Origin: Mycolicibacterium smegmatis
GTDB lineage: Bacteria; Actinomycetota; Actinomycetes; Mycobacteriales; Mycobacteriaceae
Direction: 5' to 3'
Assembly: GCF_001457595.1 (NCBI RefSeq)
Contig: NZ_LN831039.1
Span: 1,470,001 to 1,502,000, forward strand
DNA: 32,000 bases
In this document: positions 7,806-29,222 of the stretch, in pieces
Numbering within the stretch: the stretch's first letter is position 1
Layout of the letters: the number at the start of each line of letters is the position of its first letter
Translations under genes and position numbers: made by a program
Notes under the pieces: model-generated
Told to the model about the DNA's origin: nothing
Database searches by the model: none
What the model saw: only the letters and a program-made list of their open reading frames with translations

Positions 7806-7895
7806 GTCGCAATGATAGTTCTTCTCTGTTTTGCTCCGATCGCGCCACCGGGTGCGGTCGGGTACGCAGGCAATTTCCTTTTAACAAGAAAGTTT

Positions 7896-7911: not shown

Positions 7912-7937
7912 GAGCAGGGGTGTCGGGCGAATAGTCA

Positions 7938-7953
7938 GTGTTCGGACTAATTT
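7938..7953 (+). promoter_or_regulatory. conserved 16-nt box GTGTTCGGACTAATTT upstream of nicX
   Basis: Second copy of the 7205-7220 box, 54 nt upstream of the GTG start at 8008. It ends in TAATTT, a TANNNT -10-like hexamer. Confidence 0.5.
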
Positions 7954-8007
7954 GGCAGGTGCGTGTTCTGCCGGCCTGCCTGTTTTTGACACCAGGAGGG
8001 GACGCTC

Positions 8008-9039: not shown

Positions 9040-9076
9040 CGGATCACGCAGTAATCGCACCGGAGGAAACCCTGTC

Positions 9077-9884: not shown

Positions 9885-11867
9885 TCAGCGTTTCACCACC
9901 ACGTCGCGGTTCGCAATGGTCTGCGTCCGTTTGTACAGCCACAGCATGACGGCGAAGAACGCGACGAGGCCGAAGATCTGCGCGAAGCTGCCGTCGTTGC
10001 CGGAGAAGATCGCCAGCGGGTCCTCGTTGCCGGTACCCGCCACGATGCCCGCGAAGACGACACCGTAGAGGCTCTCGCCGACGATCAGACCGGTCGCCAG
10101 CAGCACGCCGAGACGCTTCTTGCGTTCGACGTCGCCGGTGCGGTACGCCCAGCGGTTGTAGAAGTACCCCATGATCGCGCCGATCGGGATGATCAGCGTC
10201 AGGCTCATCGGCAGGTACATACCCATGCCGACCGCCAGCGGCGGCAGGCCGAACCGTGATGTGCGGATGAGAATTTCGTCGATGATCACCACCACGACGC
10301 CGATCGCGGCGCCCAGCCCGATCAACGACCAGTCCAGCGAGCCGCCGAACACACCCTTGGCCAGCGACGAGATCAGCGCGGCCTGCGGTGCGGCGAGCGC
10401 GTTCTCGGTGGCACCAGGCGCGCCGAGGAACCCGAACGCGGTCTGCATCAGATCGAGCACCGGCGGGATGATGGCCGACCCGAACAGCACGCCGATCACC
10501 AACGCCACCTGCTGCTTCCACGGCGTGGCACCGACCAGCTGACCGGTCTTGAGGTCCTGCAGGTTGTCGTTGGAGATGGTGGCCACGCCGAACGTGACGG
10601 CCGCCGCGAACAGCGTGAACGCCACCAGCGCGGTGGAGCTGGTGTCGTCGGTGGGGCCGTACACGAACTTGATCATCAGCGCCGCGACCACCACGGTGAG
10701 GATGCCGACGCCGGAGATCGGGCTGTTCGAGGACCCGATCAGACCGGCCATGTACCCGCACACCGCGGCGATCACACCGCCGACGACGAAGATGAACACC
10801 AGGCTCGCGGCGATGATCGCGGCCGACTTGCCCTGCAACGCGGTCCCCAGACTGAAGTCCCACATGAGCAACCCGATCGGGATGAGCATCACCACGATCG
10901 TCGCGATCACGATGGGGAACGGGATGTCGCGCTGGGTGATGTCGACAAGTTGGCCCTCGCGGCGCTCGCGGGCCGACACCAGCGCCTCGGTGATGCCCTT
11001 GACGATCGGGCGCAGGATCTTCAGCAGCGTCGACACCGCGCCCACCGCGATCGCGCCGGCACCCACGAACCGCACCTCGTTGGCGAACGCACTGGAGATG
11101 ACGTCGGCGACGGATTCACTGCCCGCGAAATCGCCGATGGTGCGGAACGGCAGGATGATTCCGAACGAGATCACCAGGCCGACGAGCATCGCGATGCCGA
11201 CGGTCATGCCCACCAGATGTCCGACACCGATCAACGCGAACGACAGGCTCGCACCGAACATCGATCCGCCCGCGCCGACGCGGAAGTACGCGGTGATCGA
11301 ATTGGCCAGCACCTTCAGATTGGCGAGCAGTGCGAACGCGACCGACACGATCGAGCCGAACGTGATGATCCGCAGACCGATCCGGTTGTCCTCGGCACCC
11401 TCGGTGCGCTCACCGACCTTGAGCACCTCGGCGGCCGCGACGCCTTCGGGGTAGGGCAGGTCCGATCCGGTCACCAGCGCGCGGCGCAGCGGGATCGAAT
11501 ACATCACGCCGAGGATGCCGCCGACGGCGCAGACCGCGACGGTGATCCAGTACGGGAACCCGGTCCACCAGCCGATCATCACCAGGCCGGGCAGCACGAA
11601 GATGATCGCCGACAACGTGCCCGCGGCCGACGCCACGGTCTGCACGATGTTGTTCTCCACGATCGAGTGGTCGCGGAAGTTGCGCAGGATCGCCATCGAG
11701 ATCACCGCCGCCGGGATCGCCGTGGCGAATGTCAGCCCGACCTTGAGTCCCAGGTACACGTTGGCGGCGGTGAACACCAGCGTGATCGCCCCGCCGAGCA
11801 GGATGCCCCGGACGGTCAGTTCGCGCAGCGTCGGGGTGGCGGGGGTTGCAGTGCTTTCCGAGGTCAC
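9885..11867 (-). CDS. OPT-family oligopeptide transporter
   Basis: 660-aa polytopic membrane ORF. The N-terminus LRELTVRGILLGGAITLVFTAANVYLGLKVGLTFATAIPAAVISMAIL is characteristic of bacterial OPT transporters. GTG start is preceded by GGAAGGAAA. Confidence 0.88.
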   Translation of the reverse strand: MTSESTATPATPTLRELTVRGILLGGAITLVFTAANVYLGLKVGLTFATAIPAAVISMAILRNFRDHSIVENNIVQTVASAAGTLSAIIFVLPGLVMIGWWTGFPYWITVAVCAVGGILGVMYSIPLRRALVTGSDLPYPEGVAAAEVLKVGERTEGAEDNRIGLRIITFGSIVSVAFALLANLKVLANSITAYFRVGAGGSMFGASLSFALIGVGHLVGMTVGIAMLVGLVISFGIILPFRTIGDFAGSESVADVISSAFANEVRFVGAGAIAVGAVSTLLKILRPIVKGITEALVSARERREGQLVDITQRDIPFPIVIATIVVMLIPIGLLMWDFSLGTALQGKSAAIIAASLVFIFVVGGVIAAVCGYMAGLIGSSNSPISGVGILTVVVAALMIKFVYGPTDDTSSTALVAFTLFAAAVTFGVATISNDNLQDLKTGQLVGATPWKQQVALVIGVLFGSAIIPPVLDLMQTAFGFLGAPGATENALAAPQAALISSLAKGVFGGSLDWSLIGLGAAIGVVVVIIDEILIRTSRFGLPPLAVGMGMYLPMSLTLIIPIGAIMGYFYNRWAYRTGDVERKKRLGVLLATGLIVGESLYGVVFAGIVAGTGNEDPLAIFSGNDGSFAQIFGLVAFFAVMLWLYKRTQTIANRDVVVKR

Positions 11868-16596: not shown

Positions 16597-18246
16597 CTAG
16601 GAGGCGACGAGTGACCGCAGCTTGATGTCCGGGTTGTCGCGCTGGAACCCTTCGAGCCGCCACGGCGTGGAGAACAACACGAGCATGACGCCGTCGCTGC
16701 GGGTCATCACCTCGGCCGACGGCTGGCGGTTCATGAAGTCGGCGTCTTCGGGATCGACGATCCGCGCGACCTGGTACGGCAGCGGTTCCAGCGAGATCGG
16801 CGCGCTGAGCTCGGTCGCCATGCGGTGCGAGGCCACCTCGAACTGCATGGGGCCGACCGCGGCGAACACCGGGGCCTGCTCGCCACGCTTGTCCGAGCGC
16901 AGCACCTGCACCACGCCCTCCTGCTCGAGCTGCTCGATGCCGCGGCGGAACTGCTTGTGCTTGCTGGGATCGGTGCCGCGGGCCACCGCGAAATGCTCGG
17001 GCGAGAAGCTGGGGATCGGCGGAAACTGCACGGGCACATCGCGATACAGCGTGTCGCCGGGGCGCAGCGCTTGGGCGTTGGCCAACCCGATCACGTCGCC
17101 GGGCCAGGCGTCGTCCAGCGTCGAGCGCTGCTGGCCGAACACCGACTGCGCGTACTTGGTGACGAACGGCTTACCGGTGGCGGCGTGGGTGAGCACGTCG
17201 CCGCGCTCGAACGTGCCCGACACGACGCGGGCGTAGGCGATGCGGTCGCGGTGCGCGGAGTCCATGCCGGCCTGCACCTTGAACACGAATGCGCTGAACG
17301 GCGCGTCGGGGACGCGGCGCTCGCCGTCGACGTCGACGGCGCCGTTGGGCGAGGGTGCGAGCTCGACGAGCACGTCGAGCAGCTGGTTCACGCCGAAGTT
17401 CAACGCGGCCGACGTGAACAGCGTCGGCGAGGCCGTCCCGGCGAGGAACGCGTCGCGGTCGTAGTCGCCGCCGTCGGCGCTCAGCAGCTCGGACTCCTCG
17501 ACCGCGGTGTCCCAGTCGTCGCCGGCGGCCGCATGCGCGGCGTCGGCGGGGATGTGCTCCTCGGGCGCGGCGGTCGCGCCGCCCGCGGTGCGGGTGAAGC
17601 GGATGAATTGCCCGCCCCGGCGGTCCAGCACACCCTTGAAGTCACCGGCGATACCAACGGGCCAAGTCAGGGGAGTGGGCTTCAAACCGATGCGCGTCTG
17701 GATCTCGTCGATCAGCTCAAGGGCGTGGCGGCCGGGGCGGTCCCACTTGTTGATGACCGTGATGATCGGGATGCCACGGTGCTTACACACCTGGAACAGC
17801 TTGAGGGTCTGCGGCTCAAGGCCTTTCGCGGCGTCGATGAGCATCACCGCGCAGTCGACGGCGGTGAGCACGCGGTAGGTGTCCTCGGAGAAGTCGGCGT
17901 GGCCGGGGGTGTCGAGGAGGTTGATCACCGAATCGCGGTACGGGAACTGCAGCACCGTCGAGGTGATCGAGATGCCTCTGGCCTTCTCCATCTCCATCCA
18001 GTCCGACACCGTGGAGCGCCGGCCCGCCTTGCCGTGGATCGCACCGGCCTCGGTGATGACCCGCGCATGCAGCGCCAGGGCCTCGGTCAGCGTCGACTTA
18101 CCGGCATCGGGGTGGCTGATGACGGCGAAGGTCCGGCGGCGCGTGGCTTCGGCGGCGATGCGGCGGGAAAGAGAGGTGTTGGCGGAGGGAGCAAGGGCGG
18201 GGGTGTCGGTCATGTCGTCATAAATGGTATGGGCGCGCGCGGGCAA
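16597..18246 (-). CDS. prfC: peptide chain release factor 3 (translational GTPase)
   Basis: RRTFAVISHPDAGKSTLTEALAL, SDWMEMEKARGISITS, LLDTPGHADFSEDTYR and NKWDR align with E. coli RF3 as I remember it. The track start at 18246 is a TTG; ATG 18213 (MTDTPAL..) is an alternative. Confidence 0.95.
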   Translation of the reverse strand: MPARAHTIYDDMTDTPALAPSANTSLSRRIAAEATRRRTFAVISHPDAGKSTLTEALALHARVITEAGAIHGKAGRRSTVSDWMEMEKARGISITSTVLQFPYRDSVINLLDTPGHADFSEDTYRVLTAVDCAVMLIDAAKGLEPQTLKLFQVCKHRGIPIITVINKWDRPGRHALELIDEIQTRIGLKPTPLTWPVGIAGDFKGVLDRRGGQFIRFTRTAGGATAAPEEHIPADAAHAAAGDDWDTAVEESELLSADGGDYDRDAFLAGTASPTLFTSAALNFGVNQLLDVLVELAPSPNGAVDVDGERRVPDAPFSAFVFKVQAGMDSAHRDRIAYARVVSGTFERGDVLTHAATGKPFVTKYAQSVFGQQRSTLDDAWPGDVIGLANAQALRPGDTLYRDVPVQFPPIPSFSPEHFAVARGTDPSKHKQFRRGIEQLEQEGVVQVLRSDKRGEQAPVFAAVGPMQFEVASHRMATELSAPISLEPLPYQVARIVDPEDADFMNRQPSAEVMTRSDGVMLVLFSTPWRLEGFQRDNPDIKLRSLVAS

Positions 18247-18288
18247 AACCGTAATCGAGCCGATCTCGAGCGACGGCGCCCACAGTCC

Positions 18289-18497
18289 TCAGGCGGTGAC
18301 CGCGGCCGCCATCGCGGCCAGTTTGTCGTCCAGGGCGGTGGCTGCGGCCTCCAGATCGGGGTTGGGTTCGACGACCATGAGCGACGACGGCTTGACGTAC
18401 GTCAGCGCACTACGCCCCTCGTCTTCGCTGGTCAGCAGCAGTTCTACGGGCGCGAACAGCCCGGCGGTGACGTCGTGGAAGGCTCTGGCCGGTCTAT
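18289..18497 (-). pseudogene. possible C-terminal remnant of a DUF302-like gene
   Basis: The minus frame reads ..ARAFHDVTAGLFAPVELLLTSEDEGRSALTYVKPSSLMVVEPNPDLEAAATALDDKLAAMAAAVTA*. An in-frame TGA lies just upstream, and no canonical start occurs before the internal Met. The resemblance to DUF302 C-termini is from memory only. Confidence 0.3.
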
Positions 18498-18499
18498 TC

Positions 18500-18523
18500 C
18501 TGAGTATGGCGAGCCATACTCAG
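18500..18523 (-). terminator. hairpin CTGAGTATGGC-GA-GCCATACTCAG downstream of gntR
   Basis: 11-nt perfect arms, 7 nt after the GntR stop (18530-18532). There is no U-tract, which is common in high-GC actinobacteria. Confidence 0.4.
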
Positions 18524-18529
18524 ATGAGT

Positions 18530-19219
18530 TCATCCCAGCTGTGAGCGCGCGGTGCCGGCGCCGAACAGGGTCTGCAACGTGGTCGTGCGATTGCGGTCGG
18601 CGTGGTCTTTCGCGAGCTTCTCGGCGGCGCGCGCGTCCCGATCGGCGATGGCATCAACCAGGCGATGGTGATCGTCGGAGACGGCGTGGGGGTCCGGGAT
18701 CTGCCGGACCAGCCACTGCACGCGGTACAGGATCGGCGCCATGATCTCGCCGAGCGTCCGGTTGTGCGATGCGGTCACCAGCAACTGATGAAACAGCGCG
18801 TTCGCGTCATGGGCGGCCGTGAAGTCATTGCGCTCCGCGGCGTGGTCGGCGGATTCGGCCGCACCACGAAGCGCCGCGATGTCCTCATCGGTCCGGTTCT
18901 CGGCGGCCTCGCGGCAGGCCATGGCTTCCAGGGCCTGCCGGATGTCGAAAAGTTCGGTGACGTCCCGCTCGGTCCAACCGCGGACCACCAGACCGCGCGT
19001 CTTGCGTACCTCGAGAAAGCCCTCGGTCTTCAGCGCCTGCAGGGCCTCGCGTGCGGGGAGTCGTGAAACCCCGTAAGCGTCAGCCACATCCCGCTCCACC
19101 AGCCGGTACCCGGGTGGGTACCGGCCGCGGATGACGTCGGAGCGCAGCGCGTCGATGAGCCGGCCGCGCAGCATCAGGTTGCTGGGCGAGCCTTCGTCGG
19201 CGGACGGCGTCGAGGACAT
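18530..19219 (-). CDS. GntR-family transcriptional regulator (FadR/FCD subfamily)
   Basis: 229-aa ORF. The N-terminal wHTH is RYPPGYRLVERDVADAYGVSRLPAREALQALKTEGFL. The C-terminus is an all-helical FCD-like domain. Confidence 0.9.
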   Translation of the reverse strand: MSSTPSADEGSPSNLMLRGRLIDALRSDVIRGRYPPGYRLVERDVADAYGVSRLPAREALQALKTEGFLEVRKTRGLVVRGWTERDVTELFDIRQALEAMACREAAENRTDEDIAALRGAAESADHAAERNDFTAAHDANALFHQLLVTASHNRTLGEIMAPILYRVQWLVRQIPDPHAVSDDHHRLVDAIADRDARAAEKLAKDHADRNRTTTLQTLFGAGTARSQLG

Positions 19220-19228
19220 GATGTCCTC
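19212..19228 (-). promoter_or_regulatory. 17-nt palindrome GAGGACAT(C)ATGTCCTC spanning the SD and start codon of gntR
   Basis: Perfect 8-nt arms. In the mRNA, GAGGAC could pair with GUCCUC (codons 2-3), with the A and U of the AUG lying in the 5-nt loop. Confidence 0.4.
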
Positions 19229-19270
19229 AGCTTAGCCATCGGCCGTCGCGCTTCGACGCTGATGTGAACC

Positions 19271-20182
19271 TCAGCGTCCCACGTACTCAGGGCGTGTCGG
19301 CTGATCCAGCGGATAACGCGACCGGAACTGCTCGGCGGCGTCGGCCATGGTGACGAATTCGACGCCGTCGAAGCCCGCCCACCGGTCCAGCAGGCGCTCG
19401 AGCATGAGCAGCACCTGGGGACGTCCCGAGACGTCCGGATGGAGCGTCATGGGGATGACGGCGTAGTCGAGTTCGCGGTACACCCAATCGAATTGGTCGT
19501 TCCACATCTGTTCGATGTCGCGGGGGTTCACGAAGCCGTGCGAGTTGGCGTGGCCCTTGATGAACATCATGGGCGGCAGGTCGTCGACGTACCAGTTGCC
19601 GCAGAACTCGACGAGGTCGATCTCGTGGCCGTGCTTGAGCGGCTTCATCCAGTGCTCGGCCGGTTTGGTGGTGTCGATCGGGGTCCACTCGTCACCGACA
19701 CGCGCGTAGAACGGGACGAAGTCGTTGTAGTTCTGGGAGTGGTCGTAGGAGAAGTCGTACTCCTTGAGGATCGACGCGGTGTGTTCGCTCATCTCCCACC
19801 ACGGCGCGACATAGCCTTTCGGGCGTGCGCCGGTGAGTTGTTCGACGAGTTCGACGCTCTTGGCCATCACGGCGCGTTCCTGCTCCTGGGACAGCGAACG
19901 CGGGTTCTCGTGGCTGTATCCGTGGGCGCCGATCTCGTGTCCGGCGTCGACGCACATCTTGGCCTGCCTGGGAAAGGTCTCGATCGAGTGGCCGGGCCAG
20001 AACCACGTCGACACGATGCCGCGACGCTCGAGCAGTTTCAGCATGCGCGGCACACCCACCTCGCCGGCGAACACGCCGCGTTGCATGTCGTTCGGCGAAT
20101 CCTGACCGCCGTACGACCCCAGCCAGCCTGCGCACGAGTCGACGTCGATCCCGACACAAACCTGAATCTTCTTGTCCGTCAT
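19271..20182 (-). CDS. polysaccharide-deacetylase (CE4/NodB) fold hydrolase, probably a small-molecule amidohydrolase
   Basis: The 303-aa product starts [16 protein letters not shown]... A His-His metal motif [14 protein letters not shown] is present. ATG 20182 is preceded by GAGGAA. The track ORF extension to 20347 overlaps the upstream gene and was discarded. Confidence 0.85.
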
Positions 20183-20195
20183 TCGATGTGATTCC

Positions 20196-21350
20196 TCACT
20201 TGTTGTTGAGCAATGCGTGCAGCTTCTCCTGGGCGTCGGCCATCGCCGCGAGATCGTCACCCGTCCACGCTCGTTCGCCGATGCTGTGCGCGGAGAGCCA
20301 GGCCGCCATCTCGTCACCGCGCTCGACGGGGCCGAGCACCTGCGCACTCACGCCGTACACCTCGCGAAGTGCCTGCGGGGGATATGGGGCCTCGGTGAAC
20401 GCTGGTTGGACCAGTACCTTGCGGTGTTGCTCCAACCAGCTGACGGTCTCCAGCTTGCGCTGATCCAGCGACGGGTCGTGCTGTATGGAACGTACACCGG
20501 GAGCGCAGGATTCGGCCGCGCACAGATCGACATGCAGGCCCAGATCCGCGTCGTCGATCCGCGCCGTCGTCCGGTCGCAGCCGGTGCGCACCCGCAGTTC
20601 GGTGACGATCTCCTTGACCCGGTGCCGCAGCGGTCCCTGCTCCAGCAGCAACCCGGCTGCGGGGATGCGCGCATCAGATCCGGTGAGCTCCAGCGCCCAC
20701 CACAGCGTGGCGGCGATGCTGTCGATCACCGGGATGCCAAGGCTCTGCTCCACCTCCCGCAGCACCGTGGTGCCGTCGACGTTCGTGCAGATGAGCGCGA
20801 CGCCATGCGGCGCGGGATCCCCGTTCTTCGCCGCCGCCGTCAGCAGTTCGGCCACCTCAGCGGAACTCGCCTTCGCGAACGAGAGGTTGTCGGTGAGTTC
20901 CCATTCCGCGTGCGAGACGATGCCGACGTCATGACGTGCGTACTCCCGCGAGATCGCGTCGACGACGTCACAGGTGTAGGGCGTCGCGCAGGCAAGTGCG
21001 GAGATCCCGAAGTCGACGCACGCCTGCAGAATCGCCAGTGTCGACGTCGTCGCCGGAATTCCGGTCGCCTCGGTGATCGCGTCACAACACCGGCGGTCGT
21101 GCTCAAGCCCCAACCATGAACCCGCAGTCCCGTTCCACACGATGCAGTCCACCTCGGCGTCGGCCAGCAGCCGCGCAGCAGCCACCATGGTGTCGGCGTC
21201 GAACGCCGCACCGCCGCCGTCAAGGGTGATGGCCCGCACGGGAATCCGCGTGTAGTGGACGGTGACGTCGGGGCGGTCGGTGAGCAGCCGGGTGGTGGCC
21301 GGTTCGAGCGCGGTGTTCGAGGACGGGACGATCATGCCGATGCGGGTCAT
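20196..21350 (-). CDS. fusion protein: arylmalonate-decarboxylase/maleate-isomerase-like (Asp/Glu racemase superfamily) N-domain plus GAF-like C-domain
   Basis: 384 aa from ATG 21350, with an ATGA overlap on the MFS stop. The N-domain is [16 protein letters not shown].., with [10 protein letters not shown] at residues 70-79 and ALICTNVDG containing Cys188. The C-domain (about residues 245-384) is [24 protein letters not shown]...[38 protein letters not shown], which looks GAF-like. Confidence 0.85.
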
Positions 21351-22648
21351 ACCGACGCTCCCTTCGTGGTGGACAGCGGTGCGGCCTTGGGTGCCAACCG
21401 CTTCGAGTAGTCGAGGATGAGAACGGCCGCGGTCATGATCACGCCGGCGCCCACGAAGTACAGCAAGGCCCAGGTGTAGGCGCCGGTGGCGCCGACGATG
21501 AACCCGACGGCCATCGGGGTGACAAACCCGGAAATGTTGCCTGCCAGGTTCATCGCGCCACCCAGCACGCCGGCGTCCTCCCGGCCACCGAGGATCGACG
21601 GCACCGACCAGAACAATCCGACCCAGCGCAGGAAGAACAGCACGGTGGACAGCAGCAGCACCGCCGCCAGCGGGCTGGGCATGAGCACGACGCCGACCAG
21701 TCCCGCGACCACGCACATTCCGGCGAAGCCGAGCAGTGAGCGCATGACGCGGTTGGTGCCGTAACCCTTCTCTTTGAGCCGGTCCGCGAGTTGCCCGCCG
21801 ATGATCTCGCCGACGAACCCGGACCCGAAGATCGCGAACGTCGACCAGCCGATGGCCTCGAGCTCGAAACCCTTGCTCTCGGAGAGGAAGAGCGGGCCCC
21901 ACGTCAGCAGGCCGTAGAAGACGCCGTTGAAGCCCAGCCAGCCGGCGCACATCGCCCAGAAGCTGCGGTACTTCATGTAGTAGACGAGGCCCGCGCGCTC
22001 ACCGGTGGACTGGTGGCGTGCGTTTTCTTCGCGGTGCGCCGAGACCAGGTATTCGCGTTCGGCCTCGTCGACTTTCGGGTGCTCCTCGGGGGTGTCGCGG
22101 ATGGCTCGCCACGCCCAGATGCCCAGGAGCACGGTGACCGCGCCGGCGATGATGAACGCCCACCGCCAACTGCCGGTGGCACCGATCAGTGCGGCGATCG
22201 CGATACCTCCCACTGCGGAGCCCAGGGGCGCGCCGGCGTCGAGAATCGTCGCGCCCCGTCCGCGTTCCTTCTCGGTGAGGAACACCGCGTTGAGCTTGCC
22301 GCCCGCGGGCATGATCGGTGCTTCGGTCACACCGATCAGGCCGCGCGCGACGGCCATGGTCCCGATGTTCGGTGCCATGCCGGAAAGTGCGGTCGCGGTG
22401 CCCCACCCCGTGCAGGCCGCGGTGATGAGCTTGCGCGGACCGAACCGGTCGATGAGCCACCCGGCCGGGATCTGCATGGCCGCGTAGGCCCAGAAGAAGG
22501 CCGAGAGCAGCAGGCCCGTGACCTCGGCGCTGATGTGGAAATCCTCTTTGATCGCGGGCAGCGCCACCGAGAGTGAACCGCGATCGACGTAGTTGACCGT
22601 CACCAACAGGAGCAGCAAGGCGAACATCCGCCAACGGGTGTTGGACAT
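21347..22648 (-). CDS. MFS transporter, anion:cation symporter (ACS)-like
   Basis: NYVDRGSLSVALP and motif A WLIDRFGPRKLI are present, with 12 hydrophobic segments. ATG 22648 is preceded by GAAGGGGA and is preferred over the TTG at 22687. Confidence 0.9.
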   Translation of the reverse strand: MSNTRWRMFALLLLLVTVNYVDRGSLSVALPAIKEDFHISAEVTGLLLSAFFWAYAAMQIPAGWLIDRFGPRKLITAACTGWGTATALSGMAPNIGTMAVARGLIGVTEAPIMPAGGKLNAVFLTEKERGRGATILDAGAPLGSAVGGIAIAALIGATGSWRWAFIIAGAVTVLLGIWAWRAIRDTPEEHPKVDEAEREYLVSAHREENARHQSTGERAGLVYYMKYRSFWAMCAGWLGFNGVFYGLLTWGPLFLSESKGFELEAIGWSTFAIFGSGFVGEIIGGQLADRLKEKGYGTNRVMRSLLGFAGMCVVAGLVGVVLMPSPLAAVLLLSTVLFFLRWVGLFWSVPSILGGREDAGVLGGAMNLAGNISGFVTPMAVGFIVGATGAYTWALLYFVGAGVIMTAAVLILDYSKRLAPKAAPLSTTKGASV

Positions 22649-22662
22649 CCCATCCCCTTCAT

Positions 22663-22687
22663 TTGGTATACCGAGTTGGTATGCCAA
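22663..22687. promoter_or_regulatory. tandem palindromic boxes TTGGTATACC-GAG-TTGGTATGCCAA (candidate GntR operator)
   Basis: The two units are 13 bp apart in the 122-bp divergent region between the MFS and FAH genes. GGTATACC is self-complementary. The 27-nt span TTTGGTATACCGAGTTGGTATGCCAAA matches its own reverse complement at 22 of 27 positions. Confidence 0.5.
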
Positions 22688-22770
22688 ACAACCTAGGGCT
22701 CGCGTAGGTCGCCTTCAACCCTTGCGCGTAACCACTACGTAAACGATCCGACGGACACCCGGGAGAGCGC

Positions 22771-23409
22771 GTGAACCGAGCACCTGACGTGGGGACGATC
22801 TGGGGGACCGGTCGCAATTTCCCGGTCGCTGACGGTGGACCGCCGGACGTCCCGCAACTCTTCGTGAAGAACACCCACTCCGTCATCGGGCCGGGCGAAC
22901 CGCTACAGCTGACGGGCAGCGTGGCCACGCGCGTCGTCGCCGAAGGTGAGCTGGCGATCGTCATCGGCGACCAGTGCCGCGATCTCGTCACTGCTGAACA
23001 GGCCCGCGCCGTCATCGCCGGGTACTGCGTGGCCAACGATGTCACTGCCCGCGACCTTCAAGAGGTGGACGACCACTGGTCGCGAGGTAAGGGTCTCGAC
23101 GGTTTCTGTCCGCTCGGCGTCGAGATGGTGGCCCCGCGCGACATGCCGACGTGGAAGGACGTCATGATCAGGACCTGGGTCGACGACGAACTGGTCCAGG
23201 ACGAATCGGTGGCTGCGGCATACGTGGGGCCCGAGGAGCTCGTCTGCTGGGCCTCGCAACAGTTCACCCTCCACCCCGGAGACATCTTCTTGCTGGGGAC
23301 GCCGGCCTACCGCCCGGCCGGTGACGAGAGCCGCGCCGTACTGAAACCGGGCCATACGGCCAGGGTGGAGATCACCGGAATCGGCGAACTGATCACACCG
23401 GTGATCTGA
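22771..23409 (+). CDS. fumarylacetoacetate hydrolase (FAH) family protein
   Basis: 212-aa ORF. EGELAIVIG.., GYCVANDVTARD and SRGKGLDGFCPLG match the FAH-family metal/substrate motifs. Confidence 0.88.
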   Translation: MNRAPDVGTIWGTGRNFPVADGGPPDVPQLFVKNTHSVIGPGEPLQLTGSVATRVVAEGELAIVIGDQCRDLVTAEQARAVIAGYCVANDVTARDLQEVDDHWSRGKGLDGFCPLGVEMVAPRDMPTWKDVMIRTWVDDELVQDESVAAAYVGPEELVCWASQQFTLHPGDIFLLGTPAYRPAGDESRAVLKPGHTARVEITGIGELITPVI

Positions 23410-23582
23410 GGCTTTGTCTCGTATCGACATCCTCGGATCTACCTGTCGCAACGGCGGGGTCAAGACTCGCACACACCACCGAGCCCTCGCGGCGAAGTTG
23501 CGGGCGTGCGGCTACGATTGAGCCACTGATCGGTTCCCGGTCAGCAACCCCATCAAACTGGCTTTCGCCGAAGCACATTGGA

Positions 23583-24845
23583 GTGATGTTGTCGTCTGTT
23601 CGTCGTGCCTGCCTCGCGGCCGTTCTTGCCGTGCTGGCGGTGTTGGGTGGCGTCGTCGTCACGGCCCTGCCGGACTGTGTGCACGAGCACTGCCAGACGA
23701 TGGCCGCCGCGCCGCAGGGAGTTCCGCAGCCCTCGCCGACCGAGCCGGCCAAGCTGACGATCACCCCGAAGAACAACGCCGAGGACGTCGAACCGCTCGC
23801 CCCGGTCGCGGTGACCGCTGTCACCGGAACCGTCACGAGCGTGCGCATGCTCAACGACGCGGGCAAGGAGATCGCGGGTGCGCTGAGCCCCGACGGCAAA
23901 GTGTGGAAGCCGGCCACCGCGCTCGGCTACGGCCGCACCTACACCATGAACGTCGTCGCCCGCGGGCCCGGCGGCATGCCGACGCGGGCCAGTTCGACGT
24001 TCACCACGGTGACGCCCACCTATCAGGCCAACGTCTACCTCAACGGCACCTCGGGGGCGCCGCTGAAGGACGGTGAGACCTACGGCGTCGGCATGGTGAT
24101 CGTCGCACGCTTCGACCAGGCCATCACCGACAAGGCCAGCGCCGAACGCCGCATGAAGGTGACCACATCGCCCAAGGCCGTCGGCTCGTGGAACTGGATC
24201 GACGACCAGACCGCCCACTGGCGTCCGCGGGAGTACTACGCGCCGGGCACCAAGGTGACCGTCGACGCCGACATCTACGGCGCACGGCTCGGCGAGGACC
24301 TCTACGGCGCGCAGGACGAGAAGGTGTCGTTCGTGATCGGCGACTCGCACGTCTCGATCGCCGACGACAACACCAAACAGGTGAGCGTCTACGAGAACGG
24401 CAAGCTCGTGCGCACCATGCCGACCTCGATGGGCATGGGTGGCACCGAGACCGTCAACGGCGTGACGCTCAGCTTCTGGACCCCGCGCGGCATCTACACC
24501 GTGATGGACAAGGCCAACCCGGTCGTCATGGACTCCTCGACGTACGGTCTGCCGGTCGGATCTCGACTGGGCTACCGGACCACGATCCCCTACGCCACAC
24601 GCATCAGCGTCGACGGCATCTACCTGCACCAGCTCAACGACACCATCTGGGCGCAGGGCAACACCAATGTGAGCCACGGCTGCCTCAACCTCAGCGGCGA
24701 GAACGCGCAGTGGTTCTACAACTTCTCCCGGCCGGGCGACATCGTCGAGATCCGCAACACCGGCGGCGAGCCGCTCAAGCCCGACAACAACGGCGACTGG
24801 ACCATCCCGTGGGAGCAGTGGCGTAAGGGCAGCGCGCTCAACTGA
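23583..24845 (+). CDS. ldtB: L,D-transpeptidase (LdtMt2/LdtB-like: N-terminal anchor, Ig-like domains, YkuD domain)
   Basis: 420-aa ORF. The YkuD catalytic region is IYLHQLNDTIWAQGNTNVSHGCLNLSGENAQWFYNFSRPGDIVEI. The start could be GTG 23583 or ATG 23586. Confidence 0.88.
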   Translation: MMLSSVRRACLAAVLAVLAVLGGVVVTALPDCVHEHCQTMAAAPQGVPQPSPTEPAKLTITPKNNAEDVEPLAPVAVTAVTGTVTSVRMLNDAGKEIAGALSPDGKVWKPATALGYGRTYTMNVVARGPGGMPTRASSTFTTVTPTYQANVYLNGTSGAPLKDGETYGVGMVIVARFDQAITDKASAERRMKVTTSPKAVGSWNWIDDQTAHWRPREYYAPGTKVTVDADIYGARLGEDLYGAQDEKVSFVIGDSHVSIADDNTKQVSVYENGKLVRTMPTSMGMGGTETVNGVTLSFWTPRGIYTVMDKANPVVMDSSTYGLPVGSRLGYRTTIPYATRISVDGIYLHQLNDTIWAQGNTNVSHGCLNLSGENAQWFYNFSRPGDIVEIRNTGGEPLKPDNNGDWTIPWEQWRKGSALN

Positions 24846-25913: not shown

Positions 25914-26016
25914 AAAGCCTGGATAGGCGGGTGTCGATATAAGGAAAGTGCCTTCTGAGCTGCGATGATGAGTGTTCCTTACGCACTTATCGGCACAACT
26001 TCGAAAGGCACTTCCG

Positions 26017-27420
26017 GTGAAAGTGTCGCACAACTTCATGGCTGCGTCTGCAGTGTTCGATGATGAGCATCTGGTGTCGTGCGCCGGCCTGGTGCCGGTG
26101 ATGACCCTGGCCAGCCAGACCGGGCTATCGGACCTGATCGCGGACAAGGTCGAAATCGTTGAACCGCGGATCAAGTCCGGCTCGGCCAATCCGTCACCGA
26201 AGCTGCTCACCGTGGTCGCCGGAATGTGCGCCGGCGCCGACAGCATCGACGACCTCGACCTCGTGCGCTCCGGTGGAATGAAAGCCCTCTTTGGCGGCGT
26301 GTACGCGCCCTCGACCATCGGAACACTGTTGCGGGAGTTCACCTTCGGACACGCACGCCAACTGGAAGCAGTGCTGCGTGAGCATCTGGGCGGGCTCTGC
26401 GAGCGCGTCGCGTTGCTACCCGGCGCCGATACCCAAGCGTTCGTCGACATCGATTCACTGCTGCGCCCGGTCTACGGCCACGCCAAACAAGGAGCCTCCT
26501 ACGGACACACCAAGATCGCCGGCAAGCAGATCCTGCGCAAAGGCCTCTCGCCGCTGATCACCACCATCAGCACCACCACGGGTGCCCCGATGATCACCGG
26601 AGCCCGGCTGCGGGCGGGCAAGACCAACTCCGGCAAGGGCGCAGCCCGGATGATCGCCCAAGCAGTCACCACCGCCCGCGCCGCCGGTGTCAACGGGCAG
26701 ATCCTGGTGCGCGGAGACTCGGCCTACGGCAACAGCACCGTGGTGGCCGCCTGCCGCCGCGCCGGCGCCCACTTCTCGCTGGTGCTGACCAAGACCCGCG
26801 CCGTCGCTGCGGCCATCGAGGCCATCAGCGATAACGCCTGGACCCCGGTCAACTACCCCGGCGCAGTGCGCGACCCCGACACCGGCGCCTGGATCTCCGA
26901 TGCCGAAGTCGCCGAAACCACCTACACCGCTTTCAGTTCCACCAACACCCCGGTCACCGCTCGGTTGATCGTGCGCCGGGTCAAAGACGCCCGATACCTC
27001 GATGCGCTGTTTCCGGTGTGGCGGTATCACCCCTTCTTCACCGATTCCGACGAACCCGTCGACGCCGCTGACATCACCCACCGCCGCCACGCCATCATCG
27101 AAACCGTGTTCGCCGACCTCATCGACGGACCTCTGGCGCATATGCCCTCAGGGCGCTTCGGCGCGAACTCGGCCTGGATCCTGTGCGCGGCGATCGCCCA
27201 CAACCTGCTGCGCGCCGCCGGGGTGCTCGCCGGCGGTGCCCATGCCCTCGCGCGCGGAGCCACACTGCGCCGCAAGATCGTCAACATCCCGGCTCGACTG
27301 GCTCGGCCCCAACGCCGACCCATCCTGCATCTACCCTCGCATTGGCCGTGGGCCCAGCAGTGGCTCACATTGTGGCGCAACACAATCGGCTACAGCCCGC
27401 CAACTGCTGCGACCCACTGA
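26017..27420 (+). CDS. IS1380-family DDE transposase
   Basis: VKVSHNFMAASAVFDDEHLVSCAGLVPVMTLA...LLTVVAGMCAGADSIDDLDLVRSGGM...YAPSTIGTLLREFTFGHARQL...DIDSLL...GDSAYG is the typical actinobacterial IS1380 transposase pattern. The GTG at 26017 is preferred; the track ORF starts at 25972. Confidence 0.9.
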   Translation: MKVSHNFMAASAVFDDEHLVSCAGLVPVMTLASQTGLSDLIADKVEIVEPRIKSGSANPSPKLLTVVAGMCAGADSIDDLDLVRSGGMKALFGGVYAPSTIGTLLREFTFGHARQLEAVLREHLGGLCERVALLPGADTQAFVDIDSLLRPVYGHAKQGASYGHTKIAGKQILRKGLSPLITTISTTTGAPMITGARLRAGKTNSGKGAARMIAQAVTTARAAGVNGQILVRGDSAYGNSTVVAACRRAGAHFSLVLTKTRAVAAAIEAISDNAWTPVNYPGAVRDPDTGAWISDAEVAETTYTAFSSTNTPVTARLIVRRVKDARYLDALFPVWRYHPFFTDSDEPVDAADITHRRHAIIETVFADLIDGPLAHMPSGRFGANSAWILCAAIAHNLLRAAGVLAGGAHALARGATLRRKIVNIPARLARPQRRPILHLPSHWPWAQQWLTLWRNTIGYSPPTAATH

Positions 27421-27557: not shown

Positions 27558-27562
27558 CTAAA
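27558..27562. repeat. right copy of the target-site duplication CTAAA (contains the recD stop codon)
   Basis: CTA at 27558-27560 is the TAG stop of recD on the minus strand. Confidence 0.65.
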
Positions 27563-29222
27563 CCCCCGCCGGCCGTAGCCGCTTGCGTAGTCCGGTGGCG
27601 CGCACCGCCTGCCGTTCTATCGCAGCGCGCACTTCCGCTTCCGCGCCCACGACGCGCACCCGCGTCTTGGCGCGGGTGACCGCGGTGTAGAACAACTCCC
27701 GCGTCAACAACCGCGAATCCTCCGACGGCAGCAGCACCGTCACCTCGTCGGCCTGGCTGCCCTGCGACTTGTGGATCGTCATGGCGTGCATGGTCTCGAC
27801 GTCGGTGAGGCGACCCGTCGCGAACGTTCCCGCATCGCCGATCACAGCCCGCATCCCGTCCGGTGTGGCGACGACGACGCCGGTGTCCCCGTTGTAGAGC
27901 TTGAGCCCATAGTCGTTGGCGGTCACCAGGATCGGACGCCCGACGTACCACGAACCCCACAGGGGTTCACCGGTTTCCTCACCGAGCCAGCGCTGCACCT
28001 GCCGGTTCCAGTGGTCGACGCCGGCCGGCCCCCGTCGGTGCGCGCACAACAACCGGTGCTCGTCGAGCGTCGCGAGCGCCTCACGCTGGTCACCGAGGAT
28101 CGCGGCCTGACGCAACCGCATCGCGTGCGGCACCACCACTTCGCGCAACTGCTCGACCGGATCCTCGTGCACCCACTCGATGTGCTCACCACCGGCCGCG
28201 AGAACCGCCAGGGCTGCGTCGGCGTCACCCGTGCGGATGGCCGACGCCAGCGCGCCGATCGACTCACCGAACCGGTGCGACGTCTTCAGCTCCGCGACAC
28301 CGCGCGAACCAAGACCCTCGACCAGGTCCGCCAGCACCGCGCCGGCCTCGACCGACGCCAACTGATCGGGATCGCCGACGAGCACCAGCCGTGTCTGCGG
28401 GCGCACGGCCTCCAACAACCGCGCCATCATGGTCAGCGACACCATCGACGTCTCGTCGACGACGATCACGTCGTGCGGCAACCGGTTGGCGCGGTGATGA
28501 CGGAACCGCGACGACGTATCGGGCCGCGGACCGAGCAGCCGGTGCAGCGTGGTGGCGTGCAGCCCGGTCAACCGCCTGCGCTCGATGAGGTCGAGCTGAT
28601 CGATTTCGAGCTGCACGGCCTCCTGCAACCGCGCGGCCGCCTTACCCGTCGGGGCCGCCAACGCGATGCGCGGCGACGGTTTCCCCGCGAGCGCGGCCTG
28701 CTCGGCCAGCAGCGCCAACAGCCGTGCCACGGTGGTCGTCTTGCCGGTGCCCGGCCCACCCGTCAACACCGTCAGGCCTTGTGAGAGTGCCACCTTCGCC
28801 GCCTCACGCTGCTCCTCGAAGCCCGCGCCGAACAGTCTCGACACATCCGGCACCGCACCGCCGGGCCGTACCGACACCAACGCCAGCACGTCGTCGCACA
28901 CCTGCTGCTCTTCGAGCCAGTAGCGGTCCAGATACAGCAGATCGCCGAACAGGCGCAGCACGGGTGGCGCACCGAGCAGGGGACTGGCCGCCAGCGCCGC
29001 CAGCCACGCATCGGGATCCGGCCACGGCAGATCCGGTAACTCGACCTGCCCGGCCACCGACCGCAGGTCCACACACACCGAACCGCCGCGCAGCGCGCGC
29101 ACCGCGAGGGCGACCGCGAGCTCGACCGATGCGTCCGGCTCACCGGCCAGCGCGGTCAGCCGTTGCGCCACATGCACATCGGCGGGTTCGAGGATCTCGG
29201 CGAACGCTTCGAGCAGGCTCAC
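27558..29222 (-). CDS. recD: exodeoxyribonuclease V alpha subunit (RecD helicase)
   Basis: Walker A is LTGGPGTGKTTT, Walker B is VIVVDETSMV, with LVGDPDQLASV and HAMTIHKSQGSQ also present. I place the start at GTG 29222, which overlaps the recB TGA (GTGA). The track extension to 29333 lies inside recB. Confidence 0.9.
   Translation of the reverse strand: MSLLEAFAEILEPADVHVAQRLTALAGEPDASVELAVALAVRALRGGSVCVDLRSVAGQVELPDLPWPDPDAWLAALAASPLLGAPPVLRLFGDLLYLDRYWLEEQQVCDDVLALVSVRPGGAVPDVSRLFGAGFEEQREAAKVALSQGLTVLTGGPGTGKTTTVARLLALLAEQAALAGKPSPRIALAAPTGKAAARLQEAVQLEIDQLDLIERRRLTGLHATTLHRLLGPRPDTSSRFRHHRANRLPHDVIVVDETSMVSLTMMARLLEAVRPQTRLVLVGDPDQLASVEAGAVLADLVEGLGSRGVAELKTSHRFGESIGALASAIRTGDADAALAVLAAGGEHIEWVHEDPVEQLREVVVPHAMRLRQAAILGDQREALATLDEHRLLCAHRRGPAGVDHWNRQVQRWLGEETGEPLWGSWYVGRPILVTANDYGLKLYNGDTGVVVATPDGMRAVIGDAGTFATGRLTDVETMHAMTIHKSQGSQADEVTVLLPSEDSRLLTRELFYTAVTRAKTRVRVVGAEAEVRAAIERQAVRATGLRKRLRPAGV

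Follow-up and report, generated by a model that had tools for sequence, protein, structure and literature searches.

The locus examined here raises the question of whether four closely packed minus-strand genes and a divergent gene form one functional unit and, if so, what kind of compound that unit handles. It lies in a 32,000-nucleotide stretch of Mycolicibacterium smegmatis DNA, which we call the window. The first minus-strand gene (21347–22649) encodes an MFS transporter of the anion:cation symporter (ACS) type (MFS_1, 192.7 bits); its start was taken as the ATG beginning MSNTRW, a longer open reading frame from a TTG reaching 22687 being unlikely. It is followed by an Amdase/GAF fusion of the Amdase/Asp_Glu_race family (20196–21350), by a predicted CE4-fold, metal-dependent, ring-opening amidohydrolase (CE4; 19271–20182, Polysacc_deac_1, ATG start, MTDKK) and, last, by gntR (18530–19219), encoding a putative repressor of the FadR/FCD subfamily of GntR regulators (Pfam GntR 58 bits, FCD 90 bits). 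The tight packing described in the initial annotation is all present: an ATGA overlap at the MFS/fusion junction (21347–21350), a gap of 13 nt between fusion and CE4 (20183–20195) and one of 51 nt between CE4 and gntR (19220–19270). The fifth gene (22771–23409, plus strand) encodes a short FAH-family protein of 212 aa comprising the catalytic domain only (FAA_hydrolase, 208 bits). It diverges from the operon across a region carrying palindromic boxes, as had been described, although this region measures 121 bp (22650–22770) and not 122 bp. The family assignments of all five products were also correct. The MFS protein, however, scores 249.7 bits against its best NCBIfam match, TIGR00893 (ACS/D-galactonate transporter subfamily), below the cut-off of 395, and that its substrate is anionic is therefore something that we infer.

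A relative of the fusion is encoded in 441 species-level genomes, and our counts out of 80 loci refer to the best 80 of these. CE4 adjoins the fusion in 64 of the 80 loci (61–95% identity), a homologous MFS gene lies directly upstream of it in 64, and a GntR homologue is found within 2.5 kb in 70. The four-gene unit is kept in at least 80 actinobacterial species. By contrast, the window-type FAH gene adjoins the operon in only 2/80 loci, those of M. sediminis (74%) and Gordonia hankookensis (67%), where it occupies the same position, and it is absent from M. agri, the closest relative. The gene-neighbourhood comparison across Actinobacteria thus upholds the functional unit proposed earlier but limits it to four genes, which are co-conserved and tightly coupled; the window FAH is not part of the core and is at best a lineage-specific accessory. 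FAH involvement survives in another form. In Acidimicrobiia-like clusters, unfused Amdase/CE4 pairs show translational coupling with a different FAH paralogue, 32% identical to that of the window, and at locus L074 this paralogue also adjoins the fused operon. The genes flanking the operon in the window are not syntenic with it even in its closest relatives, and the operon therefore travels as a module. We conclude that MFS–Amdase/GAF–CE4–GntR is a real four-gene operon of previously uncharacterised function: as stated initially, the set could not be mapped onto a known pathway, and no published characterisation was found in the searchable literature or profile libraries.

The divergent intergenic region contains two TGGTATACCA-like boxes, TGGTATACCG at 22664–22673 and TGGTATGCCA at 22677–22686, which are candidate operators spaced by 13 bp and stop 14 nt short of the MFS start codon. 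Allowing at most one mismatch, TGGTATACCA has three matches in the window against 0.09 expected from shuffles. The motif is conserved at related promoters, preceding the first operon gene in ~55 of 64 loci spanning genera, and has the consensus (T/C)GGTATACCA. Its density is 3.1/kb in promoter windows and 0.034/kb elsewhere, a ~90-fold enrichment, and most of the matches elsewhere precede fusion, NCS1-amidase or dihydropyrimidinase-like genes. FadR-subfamily GntR operators are of the t.GT.N(0-3).AC.a type in the Rigali classification; TGGTATACCA fits this type, and the operon's GntR has the winged-HTH plus FCD domain architecture of that subfamily. The regulator reaches no NCBIfam equivalog, the best being phnR_burk (113 bits, cut-off 271.5). 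Judged by its sequence conservation, (T/C)GGTATACCA is the conserved operator of this GntR, and in other genomes it stands before genes for NCS1 permeases, amidases and dihydropyrimidinase-like enzymes as well.

CE4 matches Helicobacter pylori HP0310 ("HpPgdA", PDB 3QBU/4LY4) with E 2.8e-124 (3QBU) and is 61% identical to it over 288 ungapped residues, which span the entire CE4 domain. All of the metal and catalytic residues of HP0310 (D12/D14/H86/H90/H247) are kept, as are all the gate residues that close its pocket (Y23/W127/W196/L201; roles from PMC3084791). Like HP0310, CE4 appears to be cytoplasmic and built for a small molecule; it has no signal peptide and its catalytic Asp13 and Asp15 stand at the N-terminus. 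The database annotation would instead make it a polysaccharide or peptidoglycan deacetylase or an acetyl-esterase in a coincidental neighbourhood. It does match Polysacc_deac_1, and HP0310 has been reported as a peptidoglycan deacetylase and as an esterase hydrolysing acetylated xylan and pNP-acetate (PMC3688963), so that an esterase or deacetylase role for CE4 is still conceivable. However, the HP0310 structure has an occluded pocket and no polysaccharide groove, and the protein is inactive on polysaccharides, GlcNAc oligomers among them, and on allantoin (PMC3084791). These properties, the missing signal peptide, the kept gate residues and a co-conservation with the transporter, fusion and GntR regulon too strict to be coincidental make the annotation very improbable, and we reject CE4 as a polysaccharide deacetylase. 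As far as its sequence tells, it belongs to the HP0310/cyclic-imide-hydrolase clade, depends on metal, resides in the cytoplasm and has a closed active site suited to small molecules. The clade (imidase, EC 3.5.2.16) includes the P. putida YZ-26 imidase CIH and Aspergillus nidulans HxnM, a 3-hydroxyglutarimide hydrolase that opens 3-hydroxypiperidine-2,6-dione before an amidase acts (PMC9304392); an amidase belongs to the operon's regulon in some genomes. None of its characterised members has been reported to have an Amdase/GAF partner, a GntR operator or an ACS transporter, and no nicotinate-type upstream enzymes stand beside the operon in related loci. CE4 differs from the allantoinase PuuE: it scores 73.8 bits against TIGR03212 (cut-off 424.6) and has an Asp-His-His triad where PuuE has Glu-His-Trp (PMC11424739).

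Residues 1–~235 of the fusion (20646–21350) form an Amdase/maleate-isomerase-fold domain (Pfam Amdase, 81.8 bits; Foldseek TM 0.90 to 3IXL/3DG9), and residues ~236–384 (20199–20645) a GAF domain. A Pfam search of the window's own protein did not detect the latter, but the initial GAF call was correct: PF01590 matches in most fusion homologues and in 15 of 18 homologous C-domains, the AlphaFold (AF2) model (pLDDT 96.4) matches GAF structures here in Foldseek, and a profile-vs-PDB search matched a cyanobacteriochrome GAF (E 0.003). Its invariant polar residues include R260, R264, D266, R298, Q315, Y332, Q337, S353, H355, R360 and W362. At locus L087 the GAF domain has a gene of its own, which is translationally coupled and immediately precedes an unfused Amdase gene and CE4.

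The Amdase domain has a single catalytic Cys, Cys188, and Gly74 replaces the first Cys. In the alignment to arylmalonate decarboxylase (AMDase, EC 4.1.1.76; 3DG9) these residues stand opposite G74 and C188, a pair that has been named as the feature distinguishing AMDase from racemases with two Cys (PMC4996985). G74 is found in 85/86 fusion homologues, and C188, N12, T75, Y125 and N155 in all 86. The fusion also shares with AMDase its fold and the dioxyanion-hole T75 and Tyr, but it carries a GAF domain, is actinobacterial, departs from most of the 12 criteria published for AMDases (PMC4996985) and reaches 74.7 bits against NF052327 (cut-off 225). Pro15, Gly189 and the hydrophobic pocket L40/V43/Y48/V156/M159 are not kept; N155, N12 and S10 lie where true AMDases have the hydrophobic residues that drive decarboxylation, which weakens the case for a decarboxylase. 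With maleate cis-trans isomerases (NicE/MaiA/Iso) the fusion has in common the PSSN motif, Tyr125, Asn155 and the second Cys (CTN), but it has Gly in place of their nucleophilic first Cys. With this substitution the fusion should be neither a maleate isomerase nor a two-Cys racemase, and isomerisation in the former sense, one of the steps first suggested, is contradicted. By sequence comparison, the fusion has the carboxylate-binding residues of maleate isomerases and the oxyanion hole, but only one catalytic Cys.

The related loci bear on the substrate. Where CE4 is missing, its place is taken by a dihydropyrimidinase-like enzyme or, at three loci of Saccharopolyspora, by the allantoinase AllB, and at some of these loci an NCS1 permease and an amidase are present as well; the transporter in related loci is sometimes an NCS1 permease. 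A dihydropyrimidinase-like enzyme is also the partner of unfused relatives, at no fewer than 30 of 80 metagenome loci and on the Arthrobacter plasmid pZXY21. In Saccharopolyspora the operon forms an insertion between allB and glxK-gcl-glxR-hyi. A recurring cluster with an unfused Amdase has the order GntR-ABC-uricase homologue-(malate synthase)-CE4-Amdase-FAH-AtzD-urease, L074 has AtzD-FAH beside fusion-CE4-GntR, and L091 carries AllFGH. Such ureide-type neighbourhoods are a minority, comprising 8 Saccharopolyspora-type loci, L074 and the Acidimicrobiia-like clusters of unfused relatives; in most Streptomyces and Mycolicibacterium loci no ureide hint was seen. Because of the CE4 clade, the replacement of CE4, the NCS1 permeases and the ureide/purine clusters, a cyclic imide, hydantoin or ureide, the original guess, is the best-supported substrate class.

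We therefore give an even chance to the reading that the operon is portable, is repressed by GntR and serves the catabolism of an acidic cyclic imide or ureide (hydantoin-, pyrimidinetrione- or imide-like). The anionic heterocycle would be imported by the MFS transporter, and the substrate or an intermediate would release GntR from the two boxes overlapping the MFS promoter/5' region. CE4 would hydrolyse one ring C–N (imide) bond to give a ureido- or amido-carboxylate, which the Amdase domain would hold in a T75/Y125/T189 oxyanion hole, while Cys188 alone would donate or accept the proton at the neighbouring carbon. Our tentative first choice for its chemistry is cofactor-free decarboxylative protonation, as in AMDase; nearly as likely, and just as tentative, is a beta-elimination or tautomerisation acting on a succinate-like skeleton, which would correspond to the second of the two half-reactions of maleate isomerase. 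The GAF domain may bind a small anionic ligand, gating the enzyme or helping to capture substrate. The products would be urea or ammonia and a C2–C4 acid such as glyoxylate, finished by unlinked or lineage-specific amidase, FAH, urease and glyoxylate enzymes. Oxidised purine or pyrimidine products such as alloxanate, 5-hydroxyhydantoin, parabanate or barbiturate would fit best, each being unlikely when taken individually. The order first proposed, C–N hydrolysis, then decarboxylation or isomerisation, then C–C cleavage, is likewise one that we infer, and overall the initial interpretation is partly supported.

The operon resembles hyu clusters and PuuE/HpxA allantoin modules, in which an NCS1/MFS permease, a ring-opening cyclic amidohydrolase, a racemase-superfamily protein and an amidase/carbamoylase are under one regulator. 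By analogy with hyu clusters and HpxA+PuuE, the fusion might racemise a chiral cyclic ureide or imide, e.g. a 5-substituted hydantoin or allantoin, and thereby make both enantiomers available to a stereospecific hydrolase that opens the ring, be it CE4, a dihydropyrimidinase-like enzyme or AllB. Its fold is within the Asp/Glu/hydantoin racemase superfamily, its partner is always a cyclic amidohydrolase, often with an NCS1 permease, it stands alone beside allB in the three Saccharopolyspora loci, and CE4 is related to PuuE. However, the known superfamily racemases are all two-Cys (PMC4996985) and the operon's protein has one. A separate PF01177 gene, a homologue of true hydantoin racemases, already coexists with the unfused relatives in 26/80 of the loci of these relatives, a difference from hyu modules. 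Together with the triad of CE4 (PMC11424739) and the failure of HP0310 to attack racemic allantoin (PMC3084791), this makes such a dynamic kinetic resolution rather unlikely.

Two further pathways are less probable still. CE4 could open a (substituted) maleimide, an amidase yield maleate and the fusion isomerise it to fumarate. CIH-type imidases hydrolyse maleimide and succinimide, the databases name the fusion "maleate isomerase family", N12, Y125, N155 and C188 are common to it and a genuine maleate isomerase, and an amidase is within the putative regulon in 17/80 loci; speculatively, tetrapyrrole-derived maleimides would suit a domain whose nearest solved relatives are bilin-binding GAFs. 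Yet the nucleophilic Cys (Cys76/82 of maleate isomerases) is missing, the window operon has no amidase, and a true maleate isomerase is encoded elsewhere in the window, at 9077–9874, inside a 2,5-dihydroxypyridine/maleamate cluster (4FQ7 at E 2e-75, both Cys present, 26% identity to the fusion N-domain), and we regard this pathway as improbable. Scarcely less so is the use of the enzymes as urate-pathway analogues, CE4 as 5-hydroxyisourate (HIU) hydrolase or allantoinase and the Amdase domain as OHCU decarboxylase. A uricase homologue (K/T(S)/R/Q kept) does lie directly upstream of CE4-Amdase-FAH-AtzD, in company with urease and malate synthase; to decarboxylate a substrate and protonate it stereospecifically is precisely what AMDase-type enzymes do, and the N1–C6 bond of 5-hydroxyisourate is formally an imide. 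But in Saccharopolyspora the clusters that carry the fusion, whether CE4 is present or not, have canonical AllB, OHCU decarboxylase (PF09349) and uricase genes too, so these roles would be redundant, and the window operon has its own importer and no uricase. HIU and OHCU are, moreover, too unstable to serve as nutrients. The inactivity of HP0310 on allantoin (PMC3084791) also counts against an allantoinase.

For the protein families concerned, the Amdase/GAF protein is a previously undescribed fusion of enzyme and sensor, and the enzyme family to which CE4 belongs is currently mislabelled as cell-wall deacetylases.

The operon comprises four minus-strand genes, which a six-frame ORF listing places at 21347–22649 (MFS), 20196–21350 (the Amdase-fold fusion), 19271–20182 (CE4) and 18530–19219 (gntR). 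The FAH gene lies on the plus strand at 22771–23409, divergent across 121 bp. Read directly, the MFS/fusion junction is an ATGA stop/start overlap at 21347–21350 and the other gaps in the operon are 13 nt and 51 nt. The gene order, strands, overlap, gaps and divergent FAH described in the initial annotation all match these readings, and its family assignments agree with Pfam and NCBIfam (MFS_1, Amdase/Asp_Glu_race, Polysacc_deac_1, GntR with FCD, and FAA_hydrolase). None of the five proteins, all of which were searched, reaches an NCBIfam equivalog cut-off; the best NCBIfam match of the MFS protein is the ACS-type model TIGR00893, at 249.7 bits, below the cut-off of 395. Promoter and terminator scans of 18200–23700 gave nothing exceeding shuffled expectation.

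An alignment of fusion homologues, run against a single genome for each GTDB species, gave 441 loci, and the best 80 were analysed; their genera include Mycolicibacterium, Gordonia, Williamsia, Saccharopolyspora, Streptomyces, Nocardia, Pseudonocardia and Amycolatopsis. Among these 80, a CE4 gene is found within 300 bp of the fusion in 64, a homologous MFS gene is directly upstream of it in 64 by ORF clustering (40 by stringent tblastn), and 70 have a GntR-FCD gene no more than 2.5 kb away. In loci of the Mycolicibacterium/Gordonia/Saccharopolyspora type this gene is downstream and on the same strand; in Streptomyces it is upstream and divergent. Because ORF clustering in these high-GC loci gave many antisense artefacts, the counts were cross-checked by tblastn. 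CE4 is more conserved than the fusion, with 61–95% identity to the window protein versus 45–87%. MFS, fusion, CE4 and GntR are thus co-conserved across actinobacterial loci (best 80 of 441). The fifth gene of the initial annotation does not belong with them: a window-type FAH in the same divergent position is limited to M. sediminis and Gordonia hankookensis (2 of the 80 loci) and is absent in M. agri, the closest relative, and therefore the conserved unit has four genes and the window FAH is a lineage-specific neighbour outside it. The genes flanking the operon in the window (prfC, an L,D-transpeptidase and a pyridine cluster) are not found with it even in M. sediminis, M. agri or Gordonia, from which we conclude that the four genes move together as a module. 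At 25972–27420, 2.5 kb away on the FAH side, there is an IS1380-family transposase gene that shares 81–90% identity with copies carried by Mycobacterium/Mycolicibacterium plasmids; its presence would fit a variable region around the operon.

The pyridine cluster, at 2853–9874, is a complete-looking set for 2,5-dihydroxypyridine/maleamate (nicotinate- or nicotine-type) catabolism. On the minus strand it has genes for an aromatic-acid MFS transporter (2853–4271), an alpha/beta hydrolase in a NicD-like position (4268–5113), an isochorismatase-family amidase (5122–5703) matching PDB 4L07 (3e-55) and Bordetella 3OT4/3UAO (7e-40), entries named as isochorismatase-family that we take to be maleamate amidases, and a FAD monooxygenase (5825–7156) related to the 6-hydroxynicotinate 3-monooxygenase 5EOW (6e-52). 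On the plus strand follow the 2,5-dihydroxypyridine dioxygenase NicX (8008–9039; 7CN3, 3.5e-90) and a genuine two-Cys maleate isomerase (9077–9874; E = 2e-75 to Iso of P. putida S16, 4FQ7). A molybdenum-hydroxylase FAD subunit (1981–2856, minus strand) adjoins the cluster, and an OPT-family oligopeptide transporter (9885–11867; PF03169, 345 bits) lies between it and the prfC/operon region. Although the operon shares the window with this nicotinate-type cluster, a link between the two was rejected, as none of the genes of the cluster accompany the operon in relatives. Elsewhere in the window, at 27558–31930, one Pfam scan gave a UvrD-helicase/PD-(D/E)XK nuclease ORF (29219–31930, minus strand) with an adjacent long ORF, a predicted pair that resembles an AdnAB/AddAB-type helicase-nuclease.

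The palindromic boxes that the initial annotation had seen in the divergent region are present as TGGTATACCG and TGGTATGCCA, 13 bp apart; the last base is 14 nt before the MFS ATG. The boxes adjoin the MFS start and are 85 bp away from that of FAH. The GntR protein has an N-terminal wHTH and an all-helical FCD domain (Pfam), which with the conserved palindromic operator are features of the GntR/FadR (FCD) subfamily. Three near-matches to TGGTATACCA are observed in the window versus 0.09 expected. The third, TGGTGTACCA at 8480–8489 within the nicX coding region, may be due to chance or may be a genuine extra GntR site. The motif (T/C)GGTATACCA, which conforms to the operator type of the FadR subfamily, occurs in one or two copies upstream of the first operon gene in ~55 of the 64 MFS-bearing loci, across genera. 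When up to one mismatch is allowed, 100 of the 152 matches in 1.55 Mb of loci fall within 32 kb of promoter windows, a density of 3.1/kb versus 0.034/kb elsewhere, and nearly all of the matches outside these windows are also at meaningful sites. Where the MFS gene is missing the site precedes the fusion; in Streptomyces a site is found before an NCS1 permease–amidase pair downstream or upstream of the operon; and in Nocardia sites separate the NCS1 gene from the fusion, and GntR from the dihydropyrimidinase-like gene. This phylogenetic footprint of operator sites defines a predicted regulon: one or more transporters plus the fusion and a ring-opening amidohydrolase, joined by an amidase in some genomes.

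The CE4 protein has a NodB-type domain (PF01522, 69.6 bits versus a cut-off of 23.1) and aligns with HP0310 of H. pylori (PDB 3QBU) over 288 residues, ungapped, with 61% identity (E = 2.8e-124). The alignment equates the metal ligands D14/H86/H90 of HP0310 with D15/H87/H91 of CE4 and the catalytic D12 and H247 with D13 and H248, whilst the pocket-closing residues Y23, W127, W196 and L201 are all identical (residue roles from PMC3084791). HP0310 has neither a polysaccharide groove nor a signal peptide and is inactive on GlcNAc oligomers, acetyl-polyamines, acetyl-dipeptides and allantoin, and its authors concluded that it binds small molecules (PMC3084791). Another study groups it with the cyclic imidases, among them the imidase of P. 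putida YZ-26 and HxnM of A. nidulans; the latter opens 3-hydroxypiperidine-2,6-dione before an amidase acts (PMC9304392). A later report of HP0310 esterase activity on acetylated xylan and pNP-acetate (PMC3688963) is, however, retained as evidence against a small-molecule role. A secreted polysaccharide or peptidoglycan deacetylase nevertheless does not fit CE4, as it lacks a signal peptide, its N-terminus being without a hydrophobic leader and the catalytic Asp being residues 13 and 15, and as it keeps the groove-closing residues of HP0310. An allantoinase of the PuuE type, which is metal-independent with a Glu-His-Trp triad (PMC11424739), does not fit either, since CE4 keeps Asp-His-His and scores 73.8 bits on TIGR03212 against a cut-off of 424.6. 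By sequence, CE4 belongs to the HP0310/cyclic-imide-hydrolase clade and is a candidate cyclic-imide hydrolase. Of 8,000 scored candidates, 7,895 match it at E ≤ 1e-20, the best 120 being 68–89% identical; all of those bearing a name are called polysaccharide or peptidoglycan deacetylases. In a Streptosporangium locus (L094, 5322–9948), a CE4 orthologue (74% identical) without an Amdase partner comes right after a modular PKS and two amine-oxidase-type flavoproteins; here the same hydrolase may have a biosynthetic or tailoring use.

The N-terminal domain of the fusion superposes on arylmalonate decarboxylase (AMDase; TM ~0.9) and on maleate isomerase (TM 0.83). Aligned to 3DG9, its G74 and C188 coincide with G74 and C188 of AMDase, the published mark by which AMDase is told apart from the superfamily's two-Cys racemases and isomerases (PMC4996985). 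Across 86 fusion homologues position 74 is Gly in 85 and Cys in none, and C188, N12, T75, Y125, N155, T189 and N190 are invariant. Beyond G74/C188, however, most of the features expected of a true AMDase (PMC4996985) are missing. Within the dioxyanion hole (T75, S76, Y126, G189), T75 and the Tyr are kept, 189 is Thr and 76 is Ala, a position that is Ser in 35 of the 86 homologues. The hydrophobic pocket L40/V43/Y48/V156/M159 and P14-P15 become P, A, G, N155, F158 and P9-S10, the motifs LMGTSLSF and ILLSCGGL read VWNGTAGSW and ALICTNVD, and the AMDase model NF052327 gives 74.7 bits against a cut-off of 225. Where the AMDase pocket destabilises the leaving carboxylate, the fusion has polar residues, as does maleate isomerase. 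A maleate cis–trans isomerase is nevertheless rejected since the first of its two catalytic Cys is Gly74, even though the second is present, and a two-Cys racemase (Asp/Glu/hydantoin/allantoin) fails on the same missing Cys pair. The two-Cys maleate isomerase at 9077–9874 serves as a control from the same window: it has only 26% identity to the fusion N-domain, N12, Y125, N155 and the second Cys being common to both. Because Gly74 is close to invariant and C188 and the maleate-isomerase residues are kept, the fusion is best described, from its residues, as a putative protein of maleate-isomerase-like binding mode, taking a polar or dicarboxylate substrate, in which the nucleophile is gone and a single acid/base Cys is left. 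Such a site would be compatible with decarboxylative protonation, with beta-elimination, which is the second half-reaction of maleate isomerase, or with stereospecific tautomerisation; cis–trans isomerisation and classical two-base racemisation would not be compatible with a single Cys.

Pfam did not detect the C-terminal GAF domain in the window's own fusion protein. The initial call of a GAF domain is secured by other means: PF01590 is found in 15 of 18 homologous C-domains, the last ~150 residues of the AlphaFold model (pLDDT 96.4) match GAF structures (Foldseek TM 0.66–0.77, target-normalised), and there is a profile match to a cyanobacteriochrome GAF. Invariant residues are numerous in the domain (Arg, Asp, His, Tyr and Gln), and the Arg, His and Tyr among them suggest an anionic ligand. 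In locus L087 (6821–8903), downstream of a SBP_bac_5 gene, GAF forms a gene of its own (163 aa, with 40% identity to the window C-domain) that is translationally coupled to and upstream of an unfused Amdase and CE4, the reverse of the domain order in the fusion. As the GAF domain is a separate gene there and is absent from the Acidimicrobiia-like relatives of the fusion, it looks like an accessory ligand-binding partner and not part of the core chemistry.

The genes that replace or accompany CE4 bear on the substrate. In 16 of the 80 loci no CE4 adjoins the fusion, and these sort into a small number of types. Some have a dihydropyrimidinase(-like) enzyme along with an amidase-signature amidase and a permease of the NCS1 (cytosine/allantoin/hydantoin) type; others have the allantoinase AllB (L060, L068, L078), another amidohydrolase (L015) or a flavin amine oxidase (L012, L024). 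When metagenomes were scanned with unfused Amdase relatives (40–50% identical, same motifs), at least 509 loci were obtained. In the 80 best of these, the gene arrangement seen most often combines an anion transporter (MFS, TRAP or ABC) and the Amdase with a dihydropyrimidinase-like gene (at least 30 loci), GntR (24), a separate bona fide Asp/Glu/hydantoin racemase (26) and an amidase (12). The same five-gene module, flanked by transposases, is present on plasmid pZXY21 of Arthrobacter sp. ZXY-2 (L175, 228579–233718) in the order dgoT-type MFS, GntR, hydantoin racemase, dihydropyrimidinase and ‘nicE’, a single-Cys Amdase-like gene; the plasmid is conjugative and its host is a soil isolate. Since such clusters already have a separate PF01177 racemase, the Amdase-like protein is unlikely to be the racemase.

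Several loci place the operon or its enzymes amid ureide genes. In Saccharopolyspora-type loci the operon is inserted between AllB (582 bits versus a cut-off of 358) and glxK-gcl-glxR-hyi, with a canonical OHCU decarboxylase and a uricase a few kb beyond. With canonical AllB, Urad and uricase in these same clusters, it is unlikely that CE4 acts as an allantoinase or the fusion as an OHCU decarboxylase. A recurring cluster in Acidimicrobiia-like MAGs and soil metagenomes (L084–86, L088–90, L092 and L139; e.g. L089, 641–16756) starts with GntR, an NMT1-type ABC transporter, a divergent uricase homologue that keeps the substrate-binding residues and often malate synthase; it ends with a CE4 ~70% identical to that of the window, an unfused Amdase, an overlapping FAH, an AtzD-family ring-opening amidohydrolase that clears the cyanuric acid amidohydrolase cut-off, and urease. 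This cluster looks like a self-contained pathway from an N-heterocycle to urea and glyoxylate, apparently uncharacterised. In L074 an AtzD–FAH pair is divergent from fusion–CE4–GntR with operator boxes in between, and in L091 CE4 and Amdase are beside a dihydropyrimidinase and the AllFGH oxalurate genes. From the four ureide settings we infer N-rich heterocycles whose breakdown ends in urea together with glyoxylate or oxalurate. Because AllB, Urad and uricase coexist with the operon, a side branch is likelier than a duplication of canonical steps, and candidates would be oxidised purine or pyrimidine products such as alloxanate, 5-hydroxyhydantoin, parabanate or barbiturate-type compounds. In the majority of the Streptomyces and Mycolicibacterium loci the neighbourhood lacks any ureide hint, and a carboxylated cyclic imide is also a possible substrate.

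The window FAH (FAA_hydrolase, 208 bits) is a short protein that has the catalytic domain and no N-terminal domain, as in YcgM/FAHD1-sized proteins, and its nearest structures are HpcE-type isomerase/decarboxylases. It is 32% identical to the FAH of the Acidimicrobiia-type cluster, to which the L074 FAH is 61% identical. The presence of two different FAH paralogues beside CE4/Amdase pairs suggests that the later part of the pathway benefits from an FAH-type step. A 1,3-dicarbonyl acid might there undergo C–C cleavage or decarboxylation; more tentatively, since a Burkholderia ureidoglycolate lyase is a member of the FAH family, the step could release urea from ureidoglycolate.

In its workings the operon is like the hyu hydantoin clusters, the PuuE/HpxA allantoin modules, the imidase/half-amidase pathway for cyclic imides and HxnM/HxnN of the fungal nicotinate pathway, but by the defining features tested it is a member of none of these. 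A literature search found no description of the CE4–Amdase pairing, the Amdase–GAF fusion, the operon or its operator. We therefore read it as a putative cyclic-amide catabolic operon distinct from these, and there is a moderately high chance that its fusion embodies a new reaction. The substrate class first proposed thus stands in spirit, through the CE4 clade and the ureide-type neighbours, with a unit of four genes in place of five. We would put the general mechanism, GntR-repressed import and catabolism of an acidic cyclic imide or ureide, at even chances, and the particular substrates and a decarboxylase role for the fusion well below that. More tentatively, and with the chances against it, the single-Cys Amdase-like protein, with or without GAF, could have a new cofactor-free activity and form with HP0310-type CE4 an undescribed branch of N-heterocycle catabolism. 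The activity would be that of a decarboxylase, or of a ‘half maleate isomerase’ eliminating urea or ammonia, on a ureido- or amido-dicarboxylate, and the branch would cover the catabolism of oxidised purines and pyrimidines or of cyclic imides.

The operon is widespread, with relatives in 441 species-level genomes, on at least 509 metagenome contigs and on plasmids. The CE4 clade is very large, highly conserved and uniformly annotated as polysaccharide deacetylase, and HP0310, its only structurally studied member, is of disputed function. With a defined operator, a four-gene unit and a short list of candidate substrates (cyclic imides, hydantoins, pyrimidinetriones) the problem is directly testable. 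Testing it could uncover a cofactor-free reaction new to the Asp/Glu racemase superfamily; AMDase makes this superfamily of biocatalytic interest, and imidases are used for pregabalin precursors. If the proposal is true, hundreds of Actinobacteria, and many soil bacteria besides, would have the branch, and thousands of ‘polysaccharide deacetylase family’ annotations would be reassigned, including the debated ‘PgdA’ of H. pylori.
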